Source of the DNA: Vibrio maritimus
GTDB lineage: Bacteria > Pseudomonadota > Gammaproteobacteria > Enterobacterales > Vibrionaceae
NCBI RefSeq assembly: GCF_021441885.1
Contig: NZ_CP090438.1
Location: 1,803,730-1,835,729 of the forward strand
Direction of reading: 5' to 3'
Length of the DNA stretch: 32,000 bases
A model generated the notes under the pieces. The model did not search any database, had not been told where the DNA came from, and worked only from the letters and a program-made list of their open reading frames with translations. Of the stretch, positions 3-24,012 are shown piece after piece (the stretch's first letter is position 1; every line of letters begins with the position of its first letter). A program made the position numbers and the translations under genes.

Positions 3-1650
3 GGCACAGAAGGTGTGTTCACCGACAATGGTGATGGCACTTATACCTTTGCGCCAAACGAGAACTTTAATGGTGACGTAGACCTAAGCTTCTCAGTAAG
101 CGATGGTACGACCACCACAGAAGCTAATATTGATGTGACGGTTGAGTCGGTCAACGACATTCCTGTTGCCGGTTCTACCACATACTCAGTGAATGAAGAC
201 GGTATCATCACTATCTCTGACGACCAATTGCTTGCTAACTCAAGTGATGTGGAAGGCGAGGTGAGTGTCAGCGATGTTTCTTACTCGGGTACAGACGGCA
301 TCTTTACCGATAACGGTGATGGAACTTACAGCTTTGCGCCAAACGAAAACTTCAACGGTAACGTATCGCTTGATGTAACGGTTGTAGATGAAGACGGTGC
401 AACGGCAGAGACCACTGCAGGCATTGACGTCATTGCAGTCAACGATGCGCCAGTTTCAGGTGGCTTGGCTTACTCAGTTGACGAAGATGGTTCTATTACG
501 CTGACTCAAGATCAATTGCTATCGCAAGCAGGGGACGTCGATGGAGATGCACTAACTGCATCGAACCTCAGCGCGGGAGACAACGCAACAGTAACGGACA
601 ATGGCGATGGTAGCTTTACTATTACGCCAGATGCCAATTTCAACGGAGATATCGACCTTAACTTTGATATCTCTGATGGAGCAGAAACGATCGTTGCAAA
701 CGCTGATCTTACGGTCAATCCGGTAAATGACGCTGCAACATCGGATCCTGTGAGTCTTGCAGGTGTAGAAGACAACGCCATCATCATTTCTCAAGAAGAT
801 TTGTTGATGCATGCTCAAGACATTGATGGAGACGACCTAACCGCGAAAGATCTATCTATCGATGAATCGTTTGGTTCACTGGTTGATAATACTGATGGCA
901 CTTGGACATTCACACCAACGGAAAACTTCAACGGCGACGTTCCATTCAACTTTAACGTTGATGACGGTACTGAACTGACACCTGTTCAAGGCAACATCGA
1001 CATTGCTGCTGTTAACGATGAACCTCAGGCACCTGCAATCGAAATGCAGGGAGAAGAAGACCAAGTTATGGTCATCGATCCTGAATTCATCTTGGCACAA
1101 GCAAGTGATTTAGATGGCGATGAACTCACACTTGAAAGTATCAGTGTTAAGTCACCACAAAATGCGCAATTGCAACAGCAACCGGATGGTATGTATCACC
1201 TCGTTACTTCACAAGATTTCAACGGATTAGTTGAACTGGCTTACGAAATCACAGATGGAGAAGCGACGGCAGAAGGCTCGTTAAATGTTGATGTCATTCC
1301 TGTAAATGATGCTCCATTTGCAGATGGAAACGCCTTCTTAACGACCAATGAGGATGGGGCATTTACCTTCGATTCATCCGATATGCTCGACCTGTTTGGT
1401 GATATAGACACAGAAAGCCTAGTTATTTCACGAATCATCATGCCAGATGGTGAAGATGCCGGTGATCTGAATGACAACGGTGATGGTACCTGGACATTCA
1501 CACCAACGGGTGATTTCGCCGGAACGTCAGGGCTTCAAGTTATCGCTTCAGATGGAGAGTTTGAAACCTCACTCGATGTTCCTGTCTTTGTTCGTCCAGT
1601 CGCGGATGGAGCCGTTATTACAACAGATCATGACGGTCCATTGGTGTTCT
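3..1650 (+). repeat. Tandem ~285-nt (95-aa) domain repeats inside the adhesin gene
   Basis: DNA at 19-80 recurs with silent or near-silent changes at 304-365. The DNGDG..NFNG motif recurs near nt 18, 303, 591, 880, 1180 and 1455. Degenerate copies lie further on (~2080, ~2390, ~3030). Confidence 0.7.
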
Positions 1651-3389
1651 CTGAAGATTCAACCGGTCACTTAGGGCTTAACGTTGACCTCATTGATGAT
1701 TCGGAAATGCTCAGCAACTTGGTTATGACTGGTTTCCCTGTCGGGTTTGAAGTAAGCGATGGTGAAAATACTGTCATTATTACAGAGCCTGGACAAATGA
1801 TCAGTATCACCAACTGGAACATAGACGATCTACAGTTAACACCACCTGAAGACTTCTCTGGAAACTTCTTCGTAACTGTTAGTGCAACCACGGTTGACTA
1901 TGGTGACGAACCGTTGCCAGAACCAGAAGGTAGTGAAATTGCAGGCGACTTTGATACAACGCTAGGCGAACCAATTATCCTCACAGAAGAAGACTTGATT
2001 GGCATGGCACAAAACATCGACGCTAATGATGATGACGCTATCCAGATGGTTCACTTAGTTGATCCTAACCAAGGCTCGATGGTTGACAATGGTGACGGTA
2101 CCTGGACCTTTAGTCCGGCCGATGGCTTTACAGGCGAAGTAGACTTTGCGTATGTCGTTGAACGTGATGGTATTCTTCATGATGAACAAAGCACTATTGG
2201 TGTTCATGAAAATGAAGGACAAATCACCGATGGACCGCAGATTGAATCAATCGCTTCTGCTAGTGTGGAGGAAAGTGAACCACTTAACTTCACCGATAGC
2301 GATATGCTTAGCACCTTGAGCTCCGAATCTGGAGAAATGAGTATTGAATCCGTTACATTGCTTGAAGGTGAAGGGCTAATTGAATCTGACGGGCAGGGTG
2401 GTTATCAATTCACCCCAGCTGAAGGATACACTGGAAGTGCTCAAATCGGCTTTGTCGCGAGTGATGGTGAGAACAGTGTCGAAAGCCACTTCAATATCAA
2501 TGTAGACGAGCAAGAACCTTCAACGGTTGAAGCGCTAAGTCAAGCGGATGATGGTTCGGTTAGCATCAGTGGCGAACAAGTGCTTTCAAGTCTTGATGTC
2601 GCGGACGATGCAAGCTTATCTGATCTTAGCTATACAGGCGACGAAGGCGCACTAGTTCCTGCAGGAGACGATCAATGGACATTCTGGCCAGACTCTGAGT
2701 TTAGCGGTGATATCCCACTGGAAGCAACAGTTCAATCTGGTGGCGAAGAGCAAACTCTAACTACAACGATGAACGTTGAGACTGCACCTGAATCGACAGA
2801 AGCAACTCCTGAGCAAGCGACGGCTGAAACAGAAACTACGCAAGAATCTGTAGAAGCTTCAGCAAGCGACGATTCAGCCACATCAGATGACGAAGCCGCT
2901 GACATGACAGCTGCGCCAGGCGATGATGTCAGTCTATCAATTCCTGATGAGGTAGCTTCAGCAGAAGGTGTTGAACAGGTTGAACTATCGGGTATTCCAG
3001 ATGGTGCATCTGTGAGTGGAGCGCTAGATAATGGCGATGGTACTTACACGGTATCTGGTGACTTGTCACAACCGGTCACGATGTCGCTGGGTGATTCGTT
3101 TGAAGGTGAAGCAGAGATCTCGTTCCAAGGTGTGGATGAACTTGATACTCCAATAGATGGCGCTTCGGCAACAACAACAATTGAAGTTGATGACCAATAT
3201 GCGATGCAAGCGAGTAGCCAAACTCCAGCAGATACGTCAGGTCTACAAGATGCAGGTGGCAGCGGCGATTGGACATCTGGGGACAACACAGATACTGGTG
3301 TTGACTTTACAGATGACTCGGGAAGCTTCGGTCATGATGATCAATCATCAGGAGGCAGTCAACACGACTTTGACGATAACAACTTCTAG
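3..3389 (+). CDS. Giant repetitive adhesin-like exoprotein, C-terminal part (5' end lies upstream of the window)
   Basis: The frame is open from the window edge. Codons before the track's GTG at 15 (GTEG) continue the repeat, so 15 is not a real start. About 95-aa units carry DNGDGT(Y/W)(T/S)FxPxxNFNGD and VND(A/I/E)P motifs. The tail is acidic and T/E/S/D-rich, the stop is TAG at 3387-3389, and a hairpin terminator follows. Confidence 0.85.
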   Translation, partial: GTEGVFTDNGDGTYTFAPNENFNGDVDLSFSVSDGTTTTEANIDVTVESVNDIPVAGSTTYSVNEDGIITISDDQLLANSSDVEGEVSVSDVSYSGTDGIFTDNGDGTYSFAPNENFNGNVSLDVTVVDEDGATAETTAGIDVIAVNDAPVSGGLAYSVDEDGSITLTQDQLLSQAGDVDGDALTASNLSAGDNATVTDNGDGSFTITPDANFNGDIDLNFDISDGAETIVANADLTVNPVNDAATSDPVSLAGVEDNAIIISQEDLLMHAQDIDGDDLTAKDLSIDESFGSLVDNTDGTWTFTPTENFNGDVPFNFNVDDGTELTPVQGNIDIAAVNDEPQAPAIEMQGEEDQVMVIDPEFILAQASDLDGDELTLESISVKSPQNAQLQQQPDGMYHLVTSQDFNGLVELAYEITDGEATAEGSLNVDVIPVNDAPFADGNAFLTTNEDGAFTFDSSDMLDLFGDIDTESLVISRIIMPDGEDAGDLNDNGDGTWTFTPTGDFAGTSGLQVIASDGEFETSLDVPVFVRPVADGAVITTDHDGPLVFSEDSTGHLGLNVDLIDDSEMLSNLVMTGFPVGFEVSDGENTVIITEPGQMISITNWNIDDLQLTPPEDFSGNFFVTVSATTVDYGDEPLPEPEGSEIAGDFDTTLGEPIILTEEDLIGMAQNIDANDDDAIQMVHLVDPNQGSMVDNGDGTWTFSPADGFTGEVDFAYVVERDGILHDEQSTIGVHENEGQITDGPQIESIASASVEESEPLNFTDSDMLSTLSSESGEMSIESVTLLEGEGLIESDGQGGYQFTPAEGYTGSAQIGFVASDGENSVESHFNINVDEQEPSTVEALSQADDGSVSISGEQVLSSLDVADDASLSDLSYTGDEGALVPAGDDQWTFWPDSEFSGDIPLEATVQSGGEEQTLTTTMNVETAPESTEATPEQATAETETTQESVEASASDDSATSDDEAADMTAAPGDDVSLSIPDEVASAEGVEQVELSGIPDGASVSGALDNGDGTYTVSGDLSQPVTMSLGDSFEGEAEISFQGVDELDTPIDGASATTTIEVDDQYAMQASSQTPADTSGLQDAGGSGDWTSGDNTDTGVDFTDDSGSFGHDDQSSGGSQHDFDDNNF

Positions 3390-3597: not shown

Positions 3598-3625
3598 ATT
3601 TAACATAAGATAGATAATACGCACT
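3598..3625. other. dif: dif-type XerC/XerD recombination site, chromosome/prophage hybrid (left junction of the array)
   Basis: ATTTAACATAA-GATAGA-TAATACGCACT. The XerD arm is 11/11 to the remembered TTATGTTAAAT arm of E. coli and V. cholerae dif. The XerC arm is 10/11 to V. cholerae dif1 (AGTGCGCATTA). Identity with the later units begins at 3612, inside the 6-nt core. Confidence 0.8.
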
Positions 3626-3644
3626 AAATCTGTAAGCGCAAAGT

Positions 3645-5162
3645 TGTAATGTCACTATTTACCAAAGTTAAAATGTCTCTTTAGCTCGTGGTCACTAAGC
3701 TTTACTTACAACCAGCTAAGGATGCGTTTAAGATGCTAGTGACTATGAATGATTCTGATATCAATCGTTTTAAAGTAATCCAAGATGTTTGCGATCGTAG
3801 GATCCGACGAGTCGACGCGGCAGACATCCTTGATTTGAGTGTTCGCCAAGTTCAGAGGCTTATGAATCGCCTGAGGGAATTCGGTGCTGTAGGATTGACT
3901 CACCAAGCTCGAGGTAAGCCAAGTAATAACCGCTATCCTAGTGACTACCGAGACACAGTTTTAAAACTGATTCGTGATCACTATTCTGATTTTTCTCCAA
4001 CGCTTGCTAGAGAAAAACTATTGGAGTTACATAGCCTTCCAGTATCTAACGAGACCTTACGAAGTTGGATGATTGCAGATGGTTTATGGACGCCACATTC
4101 GCAACGCAAGCCTAAAGTTTACCAACCTCGCTACCGACGTGATTGTTTGGGCGAGCTCGTTCAAATTGATGGCTCTCACCATGATTGGTTTGAAGGACGC
4201 GCTGACAAATGTTGTTTACTGGTCTTTATCGATGATGCGACTGGCCGCCTGATGAATTTAAGGTTCAGCGAAACCGAATCGGCCTTTGATTACATGCTAA
4301 CAACGAGAGAATATCTTAATGAACACGGCAAACCCGTAGCGTTCTACAGCGATAAGCATTCGATTTTTCGGGTGAATCAGGAAAAGCAAAAACAAGTCGG
4401 TCAAACTCAATATGCCCGTGTATTAAAAGAGTTAGGTATTGAACTGATATGTGCGAACAGCTCTCAAGCTAAAGGTCGTGTGGAGCGAGTAAACTTGACG
4501 CTACAAGACCGACTCGTCAAAGAGATGCGCTTACAAGGAATTAACACCATCGAAGAAGCGAATGCTTGGCTTCCCTACTTCATTGCCGATTTCAATCGAC
4601 GCTTTGCTAAGCCGGCAATGTATCCGAAAAACATGCATCGAAAAGTGCGTGAAACCACACAGGAACTCGACGATATTTTCAGTTGGCAAGAAATACGTAA
4701 ACTCTCTAAATCGTTGACATTTCAATATGACAAAGTGGTTTATCTTATTGAGCCAAATGAAGAAAATACTCGCTTAGTTCACGAGCATGTCAAAGTCTTA
4801 GACTATCCCAACGGAGACATTGCGATTGTGTATGGCCACAGAAAGTTGGAATTCAAAATTTTCGATAAGCTTGAGCATGTTCAACAAACCCAAATTGTCG
4901 ACAACAAGCGATTAGGTCAAGTACTAAAGTTTGCTCAACAGCAGCAAGAAGAATTCGAGCGACAACAGAAACGCACACGGAGCAAAAAAGCCCCTAAACG
5001 CAGAGCTCAACAAAGAGCGCTTCAGGAACAACTAAGGGCTATAAACCCAGTTCTCATCACACCAGAAACCTTCAAAGCATCTAAGAGTAAAACCTAACTC
5101 ACCTACTCTATTTAGCTCATAAAGAGACATTTCTACCTGGGAGAAAAGAGGACATTTTAAAA
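3645..5162 (+). mobile_element. ISNCY-like (IS1202-group-like) insertion sequence, ends approximate
   Basis: A single DDE transposase gene is flanked by inverted motifs. A perfect 12-bp pair AATGTCTCTTTA (3672-3683) / TAAAGAGACATT (5120-5131) is flanked by an imperfect outer pair AATGTCACTATT (3648-3659) / AAAGAGGACATT (5145-5156). No target-site duplication could be identified. Confidence 0.7.
3688..5097 (+). CDS. DDE (rve/integrase-core) transposase, ISNCY-like
   Basis: N-terminal HTH (SVRQVQRLMNRL). Candidate catalytic residues lie in VQIDGSHH, AFYSDKHS and AKGRVERVN. The C-terminus is basic. The track start is GTG; ATG at 3733 (AAGGA upstream) or 3745 (MNDSD) is a more likely start. Confidence 0.85.
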   Translation: MVTKLYLQPAKDAFKMLVTMNDSDINRFKVIQDVCDRRIRRVDAADILDLSVRQVQRLMNRLREFGAVGLTHQARGKPSNNRYPSDYRDTVLKLIRDHYSDFSPTLAREKLLELHSLPVSNETLRSWMIADGLWTPHSQRKPKVYQPRYRRDCLGELVQIDGSHHDWFEGRADKCCLLVFIDDATGRLMNLRFSETESAFDYMLTTREYLNEHGKPVAFYSDKHSIFRVNQEKQKQVGQTQYARVLKELGIELICANSSQAKGRVERVNLTLQDRLVKEMRLQGINTIEEANAWLPYFIADFNRRFAKPAMYPKNMHRKVRETTQELDDIFSWQEIRKLSKSLTFQYDKVVYLIEPNEENTRLVHEHVKVLDYPNGDIAIVYGHRKLEFKIFDKLEHVQQTQIVDNKRLGQVLKFAQQQQEEFERQQKRTRSKKAPKRRAQQRALQEQLRAINPVLITPETFKASKSKT

Positions 5163-5310
5163 TGGGATTGACAAAATCGAATTTATCCAAAACAGCATTT
5201 TATCCTGTGGTTATCCCGTCAAACTTCACAAAATCCACTATCGAGACCCAAACCGGTCATGACTTTATACTGCCACCTCCGCTCTCAATGCGAAAAACTT
5301 AGCACAAAAT

Positions 5311-5348
5311 AAAATGACATACCAATCGACTCAGTATGTCATTTTTTT
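5311..5348. terminator. Bidirectional rho-independent terminator (end of phage cargo operon; also faces the IS)
   Basis: AAAATGACATAC (5311-5322) pairs with GTATGTCATTTT (5334-5345) around an 11-nt loop. A T7 run follows on the plus strand and TTTTATTTT on the minus strand. It lies 24 nt beyond the stop of the 169-aa gene. Confidence 0.75.
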
Positions 5349-5371: not shown

Positions 5372-5881
5372 TTACGGCTCGTCCAGTAACCCAAGCTTTT
5401 TAGCCACCTTTATTAGGTCGAATGGCTGTTGAAATTGAGCTTGTATCTTTTGCACTTCCAAAATGTCGAGTCCTGAAATTTCCGAACTATAATCCACGTT
5501 TTCAACAAGATTGAGACTACTTCGAATTTCATCCAAAGTCATACCATTAGGGTATTCTTCAGATCGAATGGTTATCTGTGGGTATTGGTCTAAAATCTCA
5601 ACCACTTTCAAACGTTCTTGTTCCGAGCACTTTTCTCTATTGTCCAAAGAAAGATATAGAAGCACCTTTTTTTTATCGTCATTTCCTAATGATGAAAACC
5701 AGCTTGTAGTTGGAAATCTTTTTGAAGCCGCTCTTGATTGAAGTAAACAATACTCAACTCGATTACCATAAGCTTGCATAGCATCAGACAAAGCTAAAGA
5801 ACGTAACTCATTAGAGCCAGCATAAGAAAAAGGTAAGAAACACATTAAAAATAAGCAGGTTAAACCTTTACAAAGCCGCAT
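5372..5881 (-). CDS. Secreted 169-aa cargo protein, function unknown
   Basis: The N-terminal signal peptide is MRLCKGLTCLFLMCFLPFSYA/GS. GGAGG lies upstream. It overlaps the 113-aa gene by 14 nt and is the last gene before the terminator. I recognise no family. Confidence 0.75.
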   Translation of the reverse strand: MRLCKGLTCLFLMCFLPFSYAGSNELRSLALSDAMQAYGNRVEYCLLQSRAASKRFPTTSWFSSLGNDDKKKVLLYLSLDNREKCSEQERLKVVEILDQYPQITIRSEEYPNGMTLDEIRSSLNLVENVDYSSEISGLDILEVQKIQAQFQQPFDLIKVAKKLGLLDEP

Positions 5882-6209
5882 TTGATACGCACCTCCAAAA
5901 TTCGCCCTCAGCAGTATAACTACCAGTTCTTAAGCTCATGGTTTCCGCAATAGAAAATACACGCCCTTTTGCAGTTTTATTAATAGCGTTCAGAGTTTTA
6001 CTAAACTCAACCCAATCATAGCCAGCTATACTCAGCATGGTTTGACTCGTATTTGCTTTACCAAGAAACAAATCAAACAATGGAACGGTGCTCGTTGCAA
6101 CTGCTAGCATGTTCGCCCTATCTACGATATCTCTAATCTCATCAACTGCCTCTATACTTTCACGAGACAATTTTAAATTATCAATCCGACAATACCCTAC
6201 ATTTGCCAT
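5868..6209 (-). CDS. 113-aa soluble cargo protein, function unknown
   Basis: ATG start with AAGGG 8-9 nt upstream. No TM segment or signal peptide. It is probably translationally coupled to the 169-aa gene. I recognise no family. Confidence 0.7.
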   Translation of the reverse strand: MANVGYCRIDNLKLSRESIEAVDEIRDIVDRANMLAVATSTVPLFDLFLGKANTSQTMLSIAGYDWVEFSKTLNAINKTAKGRVFSIAETMSLRTGSYTAEGEFWRCVSNAAL

Positions 6210-6258
6210 TTATTAAGCCCTTATGAAACCAATATAGTATCGTAAATCTTACTATACA

Positions 6259-6414
6259 CTAAGAAGCCTTTTCTAATCTCCTCTCAAGCTCTCGAATAAC
6301 ACGGCAAAGCTCAACAATTCGCTCAAACATTAAAGACGAAGGCTCACGTTCGTAAGCCTCCATAGCTAAAGCTAATTCATCACGCAAACGAGATAAAGAA
6401 AAATCCAAAACCAT
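6259..6414 (-). CDS. 51-aa helical small protein (below the ORF-track cutoff)
   Basis: Hand translation: MVLDFSLSRLRDELALAMEAYEREPSSLMFERIVELCRVIRELERRLEKAS. The ATG directly abuts the zot-like TAG (6415-6417), and GGTGGTG lies upstream. Confidence 0.5.
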   Translation of the reverse strand: MVLDFSLSRLRDELALAMEAYEREPSSLMFERIVELCRVIRELERRLEKAS

Positions 6415-7590
6415 CTAGTCACCACCAAACGCCGATGAAAAAGACGAAGCTAAATCAATATTAGGATGTTGGCCTGTAGGCCGTTCACCCTCGCAGTAAA
6501 CGAAATCTGAATAGCCCTCAAACTTCAATTCAACCAAACAAGGACCCATTACCGCCACATCATAGCCTGCCATATATAAGTCCTGAAGCTTCAAGGGGAA
6601 TTCATAACGAGATTTATTCACTGCCTTAAAATAAACCTCTGTTTGTCGATGCAAACGCCCTCTATCGTCTTTGTAGAACGAATCAGACGACCCTGTGATA
6701 GCCAGTTGAAGTTTACCAAATGGATGCACTGTATCAGCCTTACGCTGCCTAGAAGACGGTCTTTTCTTCTCTGGCTCTGAATTTTGCTTATCTTCCACTA
6801 CGACACGCTTAGATTCTACTACGGGCTCAGGCTCTGATTTGTTGCCAAACAACGCTAAACCACTCGTTATAGACATAGGCAACGCAATGATAATTGCAGG
6901 GATACCTACCCAGAAATACCAACGCTTCCAGATAGGCTTAATGTCACTAGCGTGAGCTTCATTCACCGATTGGTCAGATTGAGTATGCGAAGTATAGAAC
7001 GGGAAAAATCGAGGCTTATATGTTCGAACGTTGGTGTTCAACTCAGCAGGCCGACCCTCAGCACCGTCTAATACTTTTTGCGTATAAGTTTTATCAGACC
7101 CAGCTGCGGAATGCTTCGACACTCGATACTGAATTTGTATCATTGCTCGAACATCTTTGTGAAGTTTTCCAAGGCTTTGAGTCATTAACAAAATATCATG
7201 GCCATAATGACGGTGCATCGACATATATTCCAATACATCCGCCAAATTCTCAGATGCTTTCTTGCCTCTGCCTTGACTAGGTAAAACAAAGTGACATTCA
7301 TCAATGACGAACAATGCACCAACGCCCTCGTCATTCTTCCACTCGTCAGACGTAAAACAATCCTTTGTAGAGAAAGCTTTGACCGCCCCAACCTCACGGG
7401 AATAGCTATCTTCTCGAACCTCGATAAGATCTAATATTTCCTTGCCAAAAACCGATTCGAAATGATCTAAATTTAAAGGCACATTAGTGATAACTTTGCG
7501 CCCTTCCTTAAGCGCAGGAATGATGTGATACACCACAGATTCGTAAGATTTACCCGAACCTGGTCTACCCACGATAATGTTAATTGGCAT
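6415..7590 (-). CDS. Zot/pI-family inovirus assembly ATPase
   Basis: Walker A GRPGSGKS at residues 8-15 and Walker B LFVIDECH. A central TM segment (WYFWVGIPAIIIALPMSITSGLALF) has a C-terminal domain beyond it. The SD is GGGGGTG. The position follows the pVI-like gene, as in Ff and CTXphi. Confidence 0.9.
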   Translation of the reverse strand: MPINIIVGRPGSGKSYESVVYHIIPALKEGRKVITNVPLNLDHFESVFGKEILDLIEVREDSYSREVGAVKAFSTKDCFTSDEWKNDEGVGALFVIDECHFVLPSQGRGKKASENLADVLEYMSMHRHYGHDILLMTQSLGKLHKDVRAMIQIQYRVSKHSAAGSDKTYTQKVLDGAEGRPAELNTNVRTYKPRFFPFYTSHTQSDQSVNEAHASDIKPIWKRWYFWVGIPAIIIALPMSITSGLALFGNKSEPEPVVESKRVVVEDKQNSEPEKKRPSSRQRKADTVHPFGKLQLAITGSSDSFYKDDRGRLHRQTEVYFKAVNKSRYEFPLKLQDLYMAGYDVAVMGPCLVELKFEGYSDFVYCEGERPTGQHPNIDLASSFSSAFGGD

Positions 7591-7600
7591 CAGTCACCCC

Positions 7601-7918
7601 CTAAGAACCTAAACGTGTAAACGGAATAATCTGCAAACCTAGACGAATCAAGATTGCAGACACGATAATTACACTTGCTTCATTCACGCCCACTAAAGCC
7701 ATGATAGATTTTGCTTCGTCAGGAATCAGGTCGATATATTGAATCACGTTCAAGGCCGAAAACGCCGAACCAAAACCATTGATAGCAACTAAAGCTATCG
7801 ATAACACGCTATCAAAAAAGAATATGCCAATATCTTTCAACAAATCGTAGAGCGACAATAAAATAGACAAGCAAAAGTTAACAAAGTCATTCCAACGCTC
7901 AGCAAACCAATCCAACAT
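7601..7918 (-). CDS. pVI-like minor coat / membrane protein (Ace position)
   Basis: A hydrophobic multi-TM ~105-aa protein between the pIII-like and pI-like genes. The track start at 7930 is TTG. ATG at 7918 has GGAGG 5 nt upstream and lies 1 nt after the pIII-like stop codon. Confidence 0.75.
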   Translation of the reverse strand: MLDWFAERWNDFVNFCLSILLSLYDLLKDIGIFFFDSVLSIALVAINGFGSAFSALNVIQYIDLIPDEAKSIMALVGVNEASVIIVSAILIRLGLQIIPFTRLGS

Positions 7919-7919
7919 A

Positions 7920-22294: not shown

Positions 22295-22327
22295 CCTCAA
22301 CATAATTCCATGCAGATAATACGCACT
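22295..22327 (-). other. dif-like site 2 of attP (junction of units 2 and 3)
   Basis: Copy 1 +9351. Confidence 0.7.
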
Positions 22328-22346
22328 AAATCTGTAAGCGCAAAGT

Positions 22347-23864
22347 TGTAATGTCACTATTTACCAAAGTTAAAATGTCTCTTTAGCTCGTGGTCACTAA
22401 GCTTTACTTACAACCAGCTAAGGATGCGTTTAAGATGCTAGTGACTATGAATGATTCTGATATCAATCGTTTTAAAGTAATCCAAGATGTTTGCGATCGT
22501 AGGATCCGACGAGTCGACGCGGCAGACATCCTTGATTTGAGTGTTCGCCAAGTTCAGAGGCTTATGAATCGCCTGAGGGAATTCGGTGCTGTAGGATTGA
22601 CTCACCAAGCTCGAGGTAAGCCAAGTAATAACCGCTATCCTAGTGACTACCGAGACACAGTTTTAAAACTGATTCGTGATCACTATTCTGATTTTTCTCC
22701 AACGCTTGCTAGAGAAAAACTATTGGAGTTACATAGCCTTCCAGTATCTAACGAGACCTTACGAAGTTGGATGATTGCAGATGGTTTATGGACGCCACAT
22801 TCGCAACGCAAGCCTAAAGTTTACCAACCTCGCTACCGACGTGATTGTTTGGGCGAGCTCGTTCAAATTGATGGCTCTCACCATGATTGGTTTGAAGGAC
22901 GCGCTGACAAATGTTGTTTACTGGTCTTTATCGATGATGCGACTGGCCGCCTGATGAATTTAAGGTTCAGCGAAACCGAATCGGCCTTTGATTACATGCT
23001 AACAACGAGAGAATATCTTAATGAACACGGCAAACCCGTAGCGTTCTACAGCGATAAGCATTCGATTTTTCGGGTGAATCAGGAAAAGCAAAAACAAGTC
23101 GGTCAAACTCAATATGCCCGTGTATTAAAAGAGTTAGGTATTGAACTGATATGTGCGAACAGCTCTCAAGCTAAAGGTCGTGTGGAGCGAGTAAACTTGA
23201 CGCTACAAGACCGACTCGTCAAAGAGATGCGCTTACAAGGAATTAACACCATCGAAGAAGCGAATGCTTGGCTTCCCTACTTCATTGCCGATTTCAATCG
23301 ACGCTTTGCTAAGCCGGCAATGTATCCGAAAAACATGCATCGAAAAGTGCGTGAAACCACACAGGAACTCGACGATATTTTCAGTTGGCAAGAAATACGT
23401 AAACTCTCTAAATCGTTGACATTTCAATATGACAAAGTGGTTTATCTTATTGAGCCAAATGAAGAAAATACTCGCTTAGTTCACGAGCATGTCAAAGTCT
23501 TAGACTATCCCAACGGAGACATTGCGATTGTGTATGGCCACAGAAAGTTGGAATTCAAAATTTTCGATAAGCTTGAGCATGTTCAACAAACCCAAATTGT
23601 CGACAACAAGCGATTAGGTCAAGTACTAAAGTTTGCTCAACAGCAGCAAGAAGAATTCGAGCGACAACAGAAACGCACACGGAGCAAAAAAGCCCCTAAA
23701 CGCAGAGCTCAACAAAGAGCGCTTCAGGAACAACTAAGGGCTATAAACCCAGTTCTCATCACACCAGAAACCTTCAAAGCATCTAAGAGTAAAACCTAAC
23801 TCACCTACTCTATTTAGCTCATAAAGAGACATTTCTACCTGGGAGAAAAGAGGACATTTTAAAA
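22347..23864 (+). mobile_element. ISNCY-like insertion sequence, copy 3
   Basis: Copy 1 +18702. Confidence 0.7.
22390..23799 (+). CDS. DDE transposase, ISNCY-like (copy 3)
   Basis: Translation identical to copy 1. Confidence 0.85.
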   Translation: MVTKLYLQPAKDAFKMLVTMNDSDINRFKVIQDVCDRRIRRVDAADILDLSVRQVQRLMNRLREFGAVGLTHQARGKPSNNRYPSDYRDTVLKLIRDHYSDFSPTLAREKLLELHSLPVSNETLRSWMIADGLWTPHSQRKPKVYQPRYRRDCLGELVQIDGSHHDWFEGRADKCCLLVFIDDATGRLMNLRFSETESAFDYMLTTREYLNEHGKPVAFYSDKHSIFRVNQEKQKQVGQTQYARVLKELGIELICANSSQAKGRVERVNLTLQDRLVKEMRLQGINTIEEANAWLPYFIADFNRRFAKPAMYPKNMHRKVRETTQELDDIFSWQEIRKLSKSLTFQYDKVVYLIEPNEENTRLVHEHVKVLDYPNGDIAIVYGHRKLEFKIFDKLEHVQQTQIVDNKRLGQVLKFAQQQQEEFERQQKRTRSKKAPKRRAQQRALQEQLRAINPVLITPETFKASKSKT

Positions 23865-24012
23865 TGGGATTGACAAAATCGAATTTATCCAAAACAGCAT
23901 TTTATCCTGTGGTTATCCCGTCAAACTTCACAAAATCCACTATCGAGACCCAAACCGGTCATGACTTTATACTGCCACCTCCGCTCTCAATGCGAAAAAC
24001 TTAGCACAAAAT

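Follow-up and report, generated by a model that had tools for sequence, protein, structure and literature searches.

Why does a transposase gene stand right beside the attachment site (attP) of a filamentous phage in Vibrio maritimus, at the same place in every copy of that phage? The 32,000-nucleotide stretch analyzed here (contig NZ_CP090438.1, positions 1,803,730 to 1,835,729; hereafter the window) holds a tandem array of one filamentous-phage unit, and each unit carries the same transposase-bearing element next to a dif-like site. The element might be a gene of the phage, an insertion sequence (IS) that landed there by chance, or an IS that sought the place out. Here, we report that an intact dif-targeting IS very probably inserted beside the XerC arm of the phage site and was then amplified with the phage unit.

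The IS1202 family (formerly named ISNCY) has a DDE transposase in which two further D residues are conserved between D1 and D2 and position E+7 is Q, not K or R (bioRxiv 10.1101/2022.12.17.520857; PMC10132070). Its ISAba32/ISAjo2 subgroup has 5′-TGT...ACA-3′ ends, a C at position 9 of the left inverted repeat (IRL), a conserved block near position 20, and a target site duplication (TSD) of 5 to 6 bp; the inner part of the terminal inverted repeat (TIR) is repeated internally at each end. In this subgroup, the IRL invariably lies 5 to 6 bp from a XerC arm in one orientation, and its members are called "dif hunters" (bioRxiv 10.1101/2022.12.17.520857; PMC10132070). Transposases of the IS1202 subgroup carry an insertion of about 30 amino acids (aa) and those of the ISTde1 subgroup one of 5 to 10 aa, both absent from the ISAba32/ISAjo2 subgroup.

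Boundaries and family of the insertion sequence

The element is 1,543 bp long (coordinates of all features are collected in Table 1) and recurs in identical copies at 12982-14524 and 22333-23875, with a partial fourth at 31684-32000; as a preliminary description of the locus had it, the same element sits at the same place in each unit. That description placed the boundaries at 3645-5162, mistaking the outer AATGTC motifs for the ends, which in fact lie at 3631 and 5173. Three further copies, all 97% identical, confirm them. The copy in Logan contig L020 (SRR6325266) is exactly 1,543 bp, starting with TGTAGGCGC and ending with GGGATTGACA; a second 1,543-bp copy lies on the Vibrio pelagius plasmid pATCC25916 (L033, NZ_AP025505) with a TSD of its own, AAAAA; and the third lies at a chromosomal dif (L019, SRR6325281).

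In each of the three complete units of the window, a perfect AAATC stands on both sides of the IS. Between the last base of the XerC arm (3625) and the first of the IRL (3631) there is a gap of 5 bp, not the 20 bp or so estimated earlier. The IRL begins with TGTAAGCGC, and the right inverted repeat (IRR) ends in TTGACA. Two AATGTC-type motifs at each end, noticed in the preliminary description, were found at 3648 and 3672 on the left and, as GACATT, at 5126 and 5151 on the right, with a spacing of 24 to 25 nt. They agree with the terminal and subterminal transposase sites published for the family; ISAjo2-type IS have an internal site analogous to the left subterminal repeat (PMC10132070).

The transposase matched the NCBIfam profile transpos_ISNCY_2 (E = 4.9e-153; 509.6 bits, cutoff 250), with Pfam HTH_28 and HTH_32 at the N terminus and a weak rve match for the DDE core. 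Numbered from the ATG at 3733, residues D146, DD167-168, D207, E251, and Q258 (E+7) do not vary when the protein is aligned with that of ISKpn21 and those of two plasmid copies, one from Acinetobacter baumannii and one from Klebsiella. The catalytic region has no indel relative to ISKpn21 and the Acinetobacter member (the alignment held no transposase of the IS1202 or ISTde1 subgroup). Amino acid identity is 46 to 49% to ISKpn21, 55 to 57% to Acinetobacter members, and 62 to 67% to Klebsiella relatives. The open reading frame (ORF) is full length and differs from three other copies at 29 to 30 synonymous and 6 to 7 non-synonymous codons, an excess that points to purifying selection. This constraint and the independent insertions of 97% isoforms are indirect evidence that the IS transposes. 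Judged by its sequence, the element is a member of the IS1202 family, ISAba32/ISAjo2 subgroup, having all of the published features of the ends, TSD, transposase signature, and XerC distance.

The right end of the IS (5168-5173) also carries a perfect outward-facing TTGACA, which in a circle junction (IRR, 5 bp, IRL) would lie 19 nt from the TGTAAT of the IRL (3645-3650). The arrangement recalls the junction promoters of copy-out-paste-in IS, with a long spacing; a circle-junction promoter was rejected because 19 nt is too great, and scanning for promoters gave no convincing sigma-70 candidate directed outward from the IS.

Targeting of the XerC arm

Vibrio-type copies were identified through the IRL in genomes, viral contigs, metagenomes, phage records, and plasmids. 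Exactly 5 bp separate the IRL from a XerC arm of the TAATRCGCAC type, in the same orientation, in 16 of the 19 copies other than that of the window (they include L001, L004, L010, L012, L018, L019, L033, L037 to L042, and L044), the exceptions being L047 (6 bp), L051 (7 bp), and L013 (15 bp). Among the Vibrio-type copies, at least 11 distinct 5-bp flanks occur. The same layout of IRL and XerC arm was found in ISKpn21 (sequence taken from a copy on a plasmid other than CP013323 [pCAV1193-258]), the A. baumannii plasmid copy, and the Klebsiella pneumoniae plasmid copy. A spacing that recurs across so many copies argues that the position of the IS is targeted and not due to chance.

An untargeted insertion, the view implicit in the preliminary description, would likewise leave what is seen if it fell between genes near attP and persisted because it did the phage no harm: the IS lies outside all phage ORFs, and these and both dif-like sites are spared. 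The preliminary description had recorded this sparing and missed the targeting that explains it, the phage genes and dif-like sites being undamaged because the IS targets XerC arms. With the IRL 5 bp from a XerC arm in nearly all of the Vibrio-type copies, in ISKpn21, and in the Acinetobacter and Klebsiella relatives, and with XerC-arm specificity published for the subgroup (bioRxiv 10.1101/2022.12.17.520857; PMC10132070), a chance insertion is hardly credible.

Targeting may also have struck one site repeatedly. On the V. pelagius plasmid (L033, 2860-4970), the 97% isoform lies between the Xer recombination site (xrs) and an older, diverged IS1202-type remnant starting with TGTTATTACC...AATGTCC. 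Siguier et al. described a pattern of successive insertions in which the xrs-proximal one is the last (bioRxiv 10.1101/2022.12.17.520857), and comparison of the two plasmid copies indicates successive targeted insertions at one site.

Two observations concern the sequences around the IRL. In the Vibrio ouci copy (L013, about 3670 to 3715, minus strand), three tandem TGACA repeats (15 bp) stand between the XerC arm and the IRL; TGACA is also the last five bases of the IRR. The outer 23 to 25 nt of the IRL, TGTAAGCGCAAAGTTGTAATGTC, are identical in L002 to L017, L043, L045, L046, L048 to L050, and L052. Copies with this tip come from metagenome-assembled genomes labelled Chlamydiae, Bathyarchaeia, Nitrosomonadales, and Woeseiaceae and from sediment metagenomes, and their inner sequence differs. 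The non-Vibrio copies have no dif-like site upstream, and their IRR was not matched by a simple right-end pattern; they represent either another subgroup sharing the tip or contaminated binning. Within the Vibrionaceae, hundreds of clusters at 65 to 99% identity were found (including Vibrio campbellii, Vibrio owensii, Vibrio harveyi, Photobacterium, and Aliivibrio), and sequence comparison places the window IS in this distinct, family-wide clade.

Passenger or phage gene

Relatives of the phage replication protein (44 to 77% identity) were found on 12 viral contigs, none of which carries a homologue of the transposase. A like attP site (CTCAACATAA, 10 to 12 nt, TAATRCGCACT), with phage DNA directly after it, is present in 5 of the 12, and one IS-free relative (IMG/VR contig L027, 1062-12775; pII 61% identical) is tandem with a period of 6,197 bp. 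Copies of the IS at 97% identity occur without any phage, on the plasmid and at a phage-free chromosomal dif. The junction between chromosome and array falls in the dif center, 19 bp outside the IRL, and not at an IS end. Because related phages are without the transposase, phage-free IS copies exist, and the array does not join the chromosome at an IS end, the IS is, on this comparison, a passenger and not a phage gene. The preliminary reading of an ISNCY-type IS stands on these grounds together with the transpos_ISNCY_2 match and the TSD.

A transposase native to the phage, serving its integration or mobility, is suggested by homologous transposase fragments at the ends of many deposited filamentous prophage records and by a study that treats the gene as the own transposase of a Vibrio cyclitrophicus filamentous prophage (PMC11630473; ISME J 2024). 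The gene in the window is instead flanked by inverted repeats and a 5-bp TSD, the phage-free copies and the 12 transposase-free phage contigs speak against a phage function, as does a chromosome-phage junction within the central region of dif, and the V. cyclitrophicus stretch of XerC arm, IS remnant, and OmpA-like region is probably host flank, not part of the phage (see below). We consider a native phage gene extremely improbable. Filamentous phages of Neisseria (Nf/MDA type) reportedly use an IS110-type transposase for integration; a native integrative transposase of this kind was rejected for the window, given the position of the junction and the absence of the gene from the 12 related contigs.

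The preliminary description had also proposed a search for the phage without the IS. The 12 related contigs supply IS-free phages; the same phage without the IS was not found. An empty-site 21-mer was unmatched in viral contigs, a 23-mer across the right TSD and phage flank was unmatched in metagenomes, and the phage DNA gave only short matches of about 75% against GenBank phages. A search with the pII protein returned a 100% match in one genome only (V. maritimus), the next relative being 81% identical. The exact phage is thus known from one genome, and the IS-free state is seen for related phages only.

Array structure and amplification

From 3612 to 32000, the window is a tandem array with a period of 9,351 bp and 0 mismatches over 28.4 kb (3.04 units), and the array extends past its right edge. 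Each unit comprises 7,803 bp of phage, 1,543 bp of IS, and 5 bp of TSD, with the transposase gene on the plus strand and the filamentous-phage gene block on the minus strand; the phage without the IS is expected to measure 7,803 bp. At the left junction, the XerD arm ATTTAACATAA agrees with the consensus TTATGTTAAAT tabulated in PMC10132070, and the periodicity starts within the dif center, which places the crossover on the XerC side of the center. The window is probably chromosome 1 at dif.

Two inverted dif-like sites (12812-12976, with centers of 6 and 11 nt) lie about 106 bp apart in the unit and recur at +9351 and +18702. When the phage (+) strand (the minus strand of the window) was folded, the XerC arms paired with each other and the XerD arms likewise, with a 5-nt bulge in the center, in both the minimum free energy and the centroid structure; the z-score of the whole 191-nt attP fragment was only −1.2. 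In this folding model, the paired sites (12812-12839 and 12946-12976) are a forked-hairpin attP of the CTX type. Integration at the chromosomal dif with XerC-side exchange fits that type, as does the lack of an integrase of its own: the phage ORFs were scanned for domains, and no recombinase domain was found. The IS starts 5 nt beyond the hairpin base, on the XerC side. This CTX-type attP stands in a phage with a pII/X (Phage_CRI) replication protein, not RstA, and the long-spacer site also occurs in relatives (L021 to L027).

All units are identical and have the same TSD, so the IS was inserted once, before amplification, as the preliminary description had argued. The two TSD copies are internal to the unit, with unit DNA following the right one, which means that the insertion went into the phage sequence ...CGCACT AAATC^GAATTT....

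We propose the following course of events. The transposase would bind the TIR and the subterminal repeat at each end, as its family suggests, recognize XerC in some form, and transpose the IS by a copy-out-paste-in pathway. Insertion is staggered by 5 bp, with the IRL toward the XerC arm and 5 bp from it, as the TSD and the many independent copies show. Here the IS met this arm in a filamentous phage that integrates at dif and has a CTX-type attP. By one route, the IS would enter the double-stranded replicative form at the non-canonical xrs with its 11-nt spacer. By a second, more canonical route, it would enter the regenerated canonical dif (attL) of an integrated prophage, and further integration followed by rolling-circle replication across the junction would carry it into the progeny genome. 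Davis and Waldor are said to have reported in 2000 that CTXphi hybrid genomes arise by replication across a prophage junction. Either way, the IS came to lie between the XerC arm and the first phage sequence and was thereafter part of the segment bounded by successive Xer sites. This 9,351-bp segment was then amplified at the chromosomal dif, where it now stands at least three times in identical tandem copies, perhaps through re-integration of the IS-bearing genome.

The following points weigh against this account. IRL and IRR agree at only 14 of 26 positions, low for the family and slightly under the listed 15 to 25 of about 22 to 29. The internal junction sites have an 11-nt spacer and are not canonical xrs, so insertion into the replicative form needs a non-canonical target. 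Assembly or polishing could account in part for units that are perfectly identical.

Pressed further, the last point would make the array, or its perfect identity, an assembly artefact with only one IS-bearing prophage behind it, since a repeat that was collapsed and then expanded, or heavily polished, would also run for 28.4 kb without a mismatch. The source, however, appears to be a finished chromosome (a 3.58-Mb contig), and tandem filamentous prophages are common at dif, the relative in L027 being one; even an artefactual array would leave the anatomy of the IS and its position inside the phage unit unaffected. An artefact is very unlikely in our judgment.

The array could also have grown without phage replication: had the IS inserted beside attL of a resident prophage, unequal XerCD- or RecA-mediated exchange between sister chromosomes would alone produce the tandem, with no IS-bearing circle or virion. 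Unequal attL-attR exchange between sister chromatids would copy the whole intervening segment together with the IS, and this course is in keeping with the occurrence of the exact phage in a single genome and with searches of viral and metagenome collections, which yielded no circular contig bearing the IS. On the other hand, the IS-free relative forms tandems too, and neither the phage genes nor the hairpin attP is damaged. Arrays of CTX-type phages usually grow as one genome after another integrates at the regenerated dif, and CTXphi needs tandem copies for progeny. Growth purely by sister exchange is unlikely, though it deserves some weight.

The 9,351-bp chimera may itself be a working phage genome that is packaged and re-integrates; the dif-hunting IS would then use the virion to pass between cells, as the preliminary description suggested. 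We offer this as a tentative possibility. The converse suggestion of that description, that the IS gives the phage a XerCD-independent route to move, is not supported, as a lone IS moves only itself, again to a Xer site. IS-phage-IS in the array is formally a composite, and homology between IS copies could drive RecA-dependent gain or loss of the phage. Exchange between IS copies is hinted at elsewhere: the 97% copy at the chromosomal dif (L019, 1-1650) has unlike flanks, GAAGG on the left and GTAAT on the right, and GTAAT is also the left flank of a 97% copy in L040 (9650-11164), behind a Rep_trans/Zot prophage. Such hybrid flanks may have come from IS × IS recombination between two copies in the dif region.

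Phage genes and neighboring features

A terminator between the transposase gene and the phage cargo operon, described earlier, was recovered as a hairpin starting 138 bp past the IS end. The two ORFs in cargo position (5372-6209, 169 and 113 aa, downstream of Zot) had no Pfam or NCBIfam match. The remaining features are listed in Table 1.

Table 1. Features of the window, with positions counted from its first base
Feature	Positions	Strand	Sequence or remark
Cadherin-repeat ORF	15-3389		1,124 aa; then about 200 bp of unique DNA up to the dif-like site
Left junction of array, canonical 28-bp dif-like site	3598-3625	+	XerD arm, 6-bp center, XerC arm
XerD arm of junction site	3598-3608	+	ATTTAACATAA
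Center of junction site	3609-3614	+	GATAGA
XerC arm of junction site	3615-3625	+	TAATACGCACT
TSD, left copy	3626-3630		AAATC
Complete IS	3631-5173	+	1,543 bp; IS1202 family, ISAba32/ISAjo2 subgroup (assigned by sequence); 5′-TGT...ACA-3′ termini
IRL	3631-3656	+	TGTAAGCGCAAAGTTGTAATGTCACT; C at position 9, AATGTC at positions 18-23
Left subterminal repeat of inner TIR	3670-3685	+	AAAATGTCTCTTTAGC; putative second transposase-binding site
Transposase gene	3745-5097	+	450 aa from conserved Met; 454 aa from ATG 3733; maximal ORF from GTG 3688, 469 aa
Right subterminal repeat	5118-5135	−	AAATGTCTCTTTA (reverse complement)
IRR	5148-5173	−	TGTCAATCCCATTTTAAAATGTCCTC (reverse complement); plus-strand end GGGATTGACA
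TSD, right copy	5174-5178		AAATC, then phage DNA
Hairpin terminator	5311-5345		15-pair stem, A-run on one side, T-run on the other; between IS and convergent phage cargo genes
Filamentous-phage gene block of unit	5372-12757	−	Small ORFs also in block
ORF, first of two without assigned function	5372-5881	−	Pair of 169 and 113 aa
ORF, second of two without assigned function	5868-6209	−	
Zot/pI	6415-7590	−	
DUF2523 pVI-like ORF	7601-7930	−	
564-aa ORF	7920-9614	−	
pII/X replication protein (rolling-circle)	10490-11812	−	TIGR01629, E = 5.8e-105
HU/IHF-like DNA-binding protein ORF	12509-12757	−	PF00216, E = 5.9e-15; adjoins attP
Second dif-like site of phage, inverted	12812-12839	+	AATGCGCATTA TCGAAA TTATGTTACGG
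Internal array junction site	12946-12976	+	XerD-like arm CTCAACATAA, 11-nt spacer, XerC arm TAATACGCACT; again at 22297-22327 and 31648-31678

Comparison with known elements

The window IS resembles the ISAba32/ISAjo2-type IS (ISAjo2, ISAba32, ISAba71, ISKpn21, ISKpn65, and ISLad2) in its length of about 1.5 kb, TGT...ACA ends, imperfect TIR with internal repeats, 5-bp TSD, IRL 5 bp from a XerC arm, and helix-turn-helix-DDE transposase with the DD pair and Q at E+7, and the V. pelagius copy parallels their repeated insertion at a single xrs. The described targets of this type are plasmid pdif/xrs and chromosomal dif, whereas in the window a filamentous phage provides the site and is amplified together with the IS. 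The phage in turn resembles the CTXphi-type integrative mobile elements exploiting Xer (IMEXs) of Vibrio in its rolling-circle replication, Zot, inverted dif-like sites in a forked single-stranded hairpin, XerC-side crossover, dif regenerated at one junction, and tandem array at dif. Unlike them, it bears a complete dif-targeting IS just outside the base of the attP hairpin, a pII/X (Phage_CRI) replication protein in place of RstA/Rep_trans, and cargo genes without assigned function.

The V. cyclitrophicus prophage "transposase" (PMC11630473; GenBank PQ189xxx) resembles the window IS, with about 75% nucleotide identity, a near-identical IRL, and a position 5 bp from the XerC arm at dif. Those copies are truncated, terminal remnants in the host flank of dif, whereas the window IS is complete, has its own TSD, and lies inside every phage unit. 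In the records compared (L001, L041, and about 34 GenBank records PQ189xxx), the XerC arm, truncated IS, and OmpA-like downstream region are common to unrelated V. cyclitrophicus prophages at 95 to 100% identity and are always terminal; these records were rejected as further cases of an IS within a phage, since a terminal region shared by unrelated prophages is host flank. The V. cyclitrophicus "transposase" is thus probably part of the host flank of dif, which would reinterpret Fig. 4b of PMC11630473, and the insertions "separating" the prophage from the transposase would simply have used the dif site.

The type of element and its targeting were published in 2022-2023. In the part of the table of Harmer, Pong, and Hall (2023) available to us, the only Vibrio entries are of the 16-bp-TSD group (PMC10132070), and the main texts of bioRxiv 10.1101/2022.12.17.520857 and PMC10132070 mention no phages, IMEXs, or, for this subgroup, Vibrio. 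In full-text literature searches, no paper was found that connects filamentous phages at dif with IS1202/ISNCY elements. Residence of such an IS inside a dif-integrating filamentous phage appears to be undescribed in the literature searched.

Implications

The reading of the locus is corrected: the IS stands beside attP since its family seeks XerC arms. The target range of dif-hunting IS extends to the site of a CTX-type filamentous phage, where the IS joins an amplified, possibly transmissible unit. A large Vibrionaceae clade is missing from the tables of the founding papers, as far as these were available to us, and its dif-adjacent remnants have been annotated as filamentous prophage transposase. 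Were the chimera packaged and re-integrated, every integration would place the IS beside an active dif site of the host, from which it could move on to plasmid xrs, the dif of the second chromosome, or other IMEXs. An IS 5 bp from the XerC arm would then not block XerC-mediated integration of a hairpin attP, and the IS could supply homology for RecA-dependent gain or loss of IMEXs. The locus is a natural test case for a XerC arm alone, with an 11-nt spacer, as the target of such an IS and for the effect of an abutting IS on Xer recombination.

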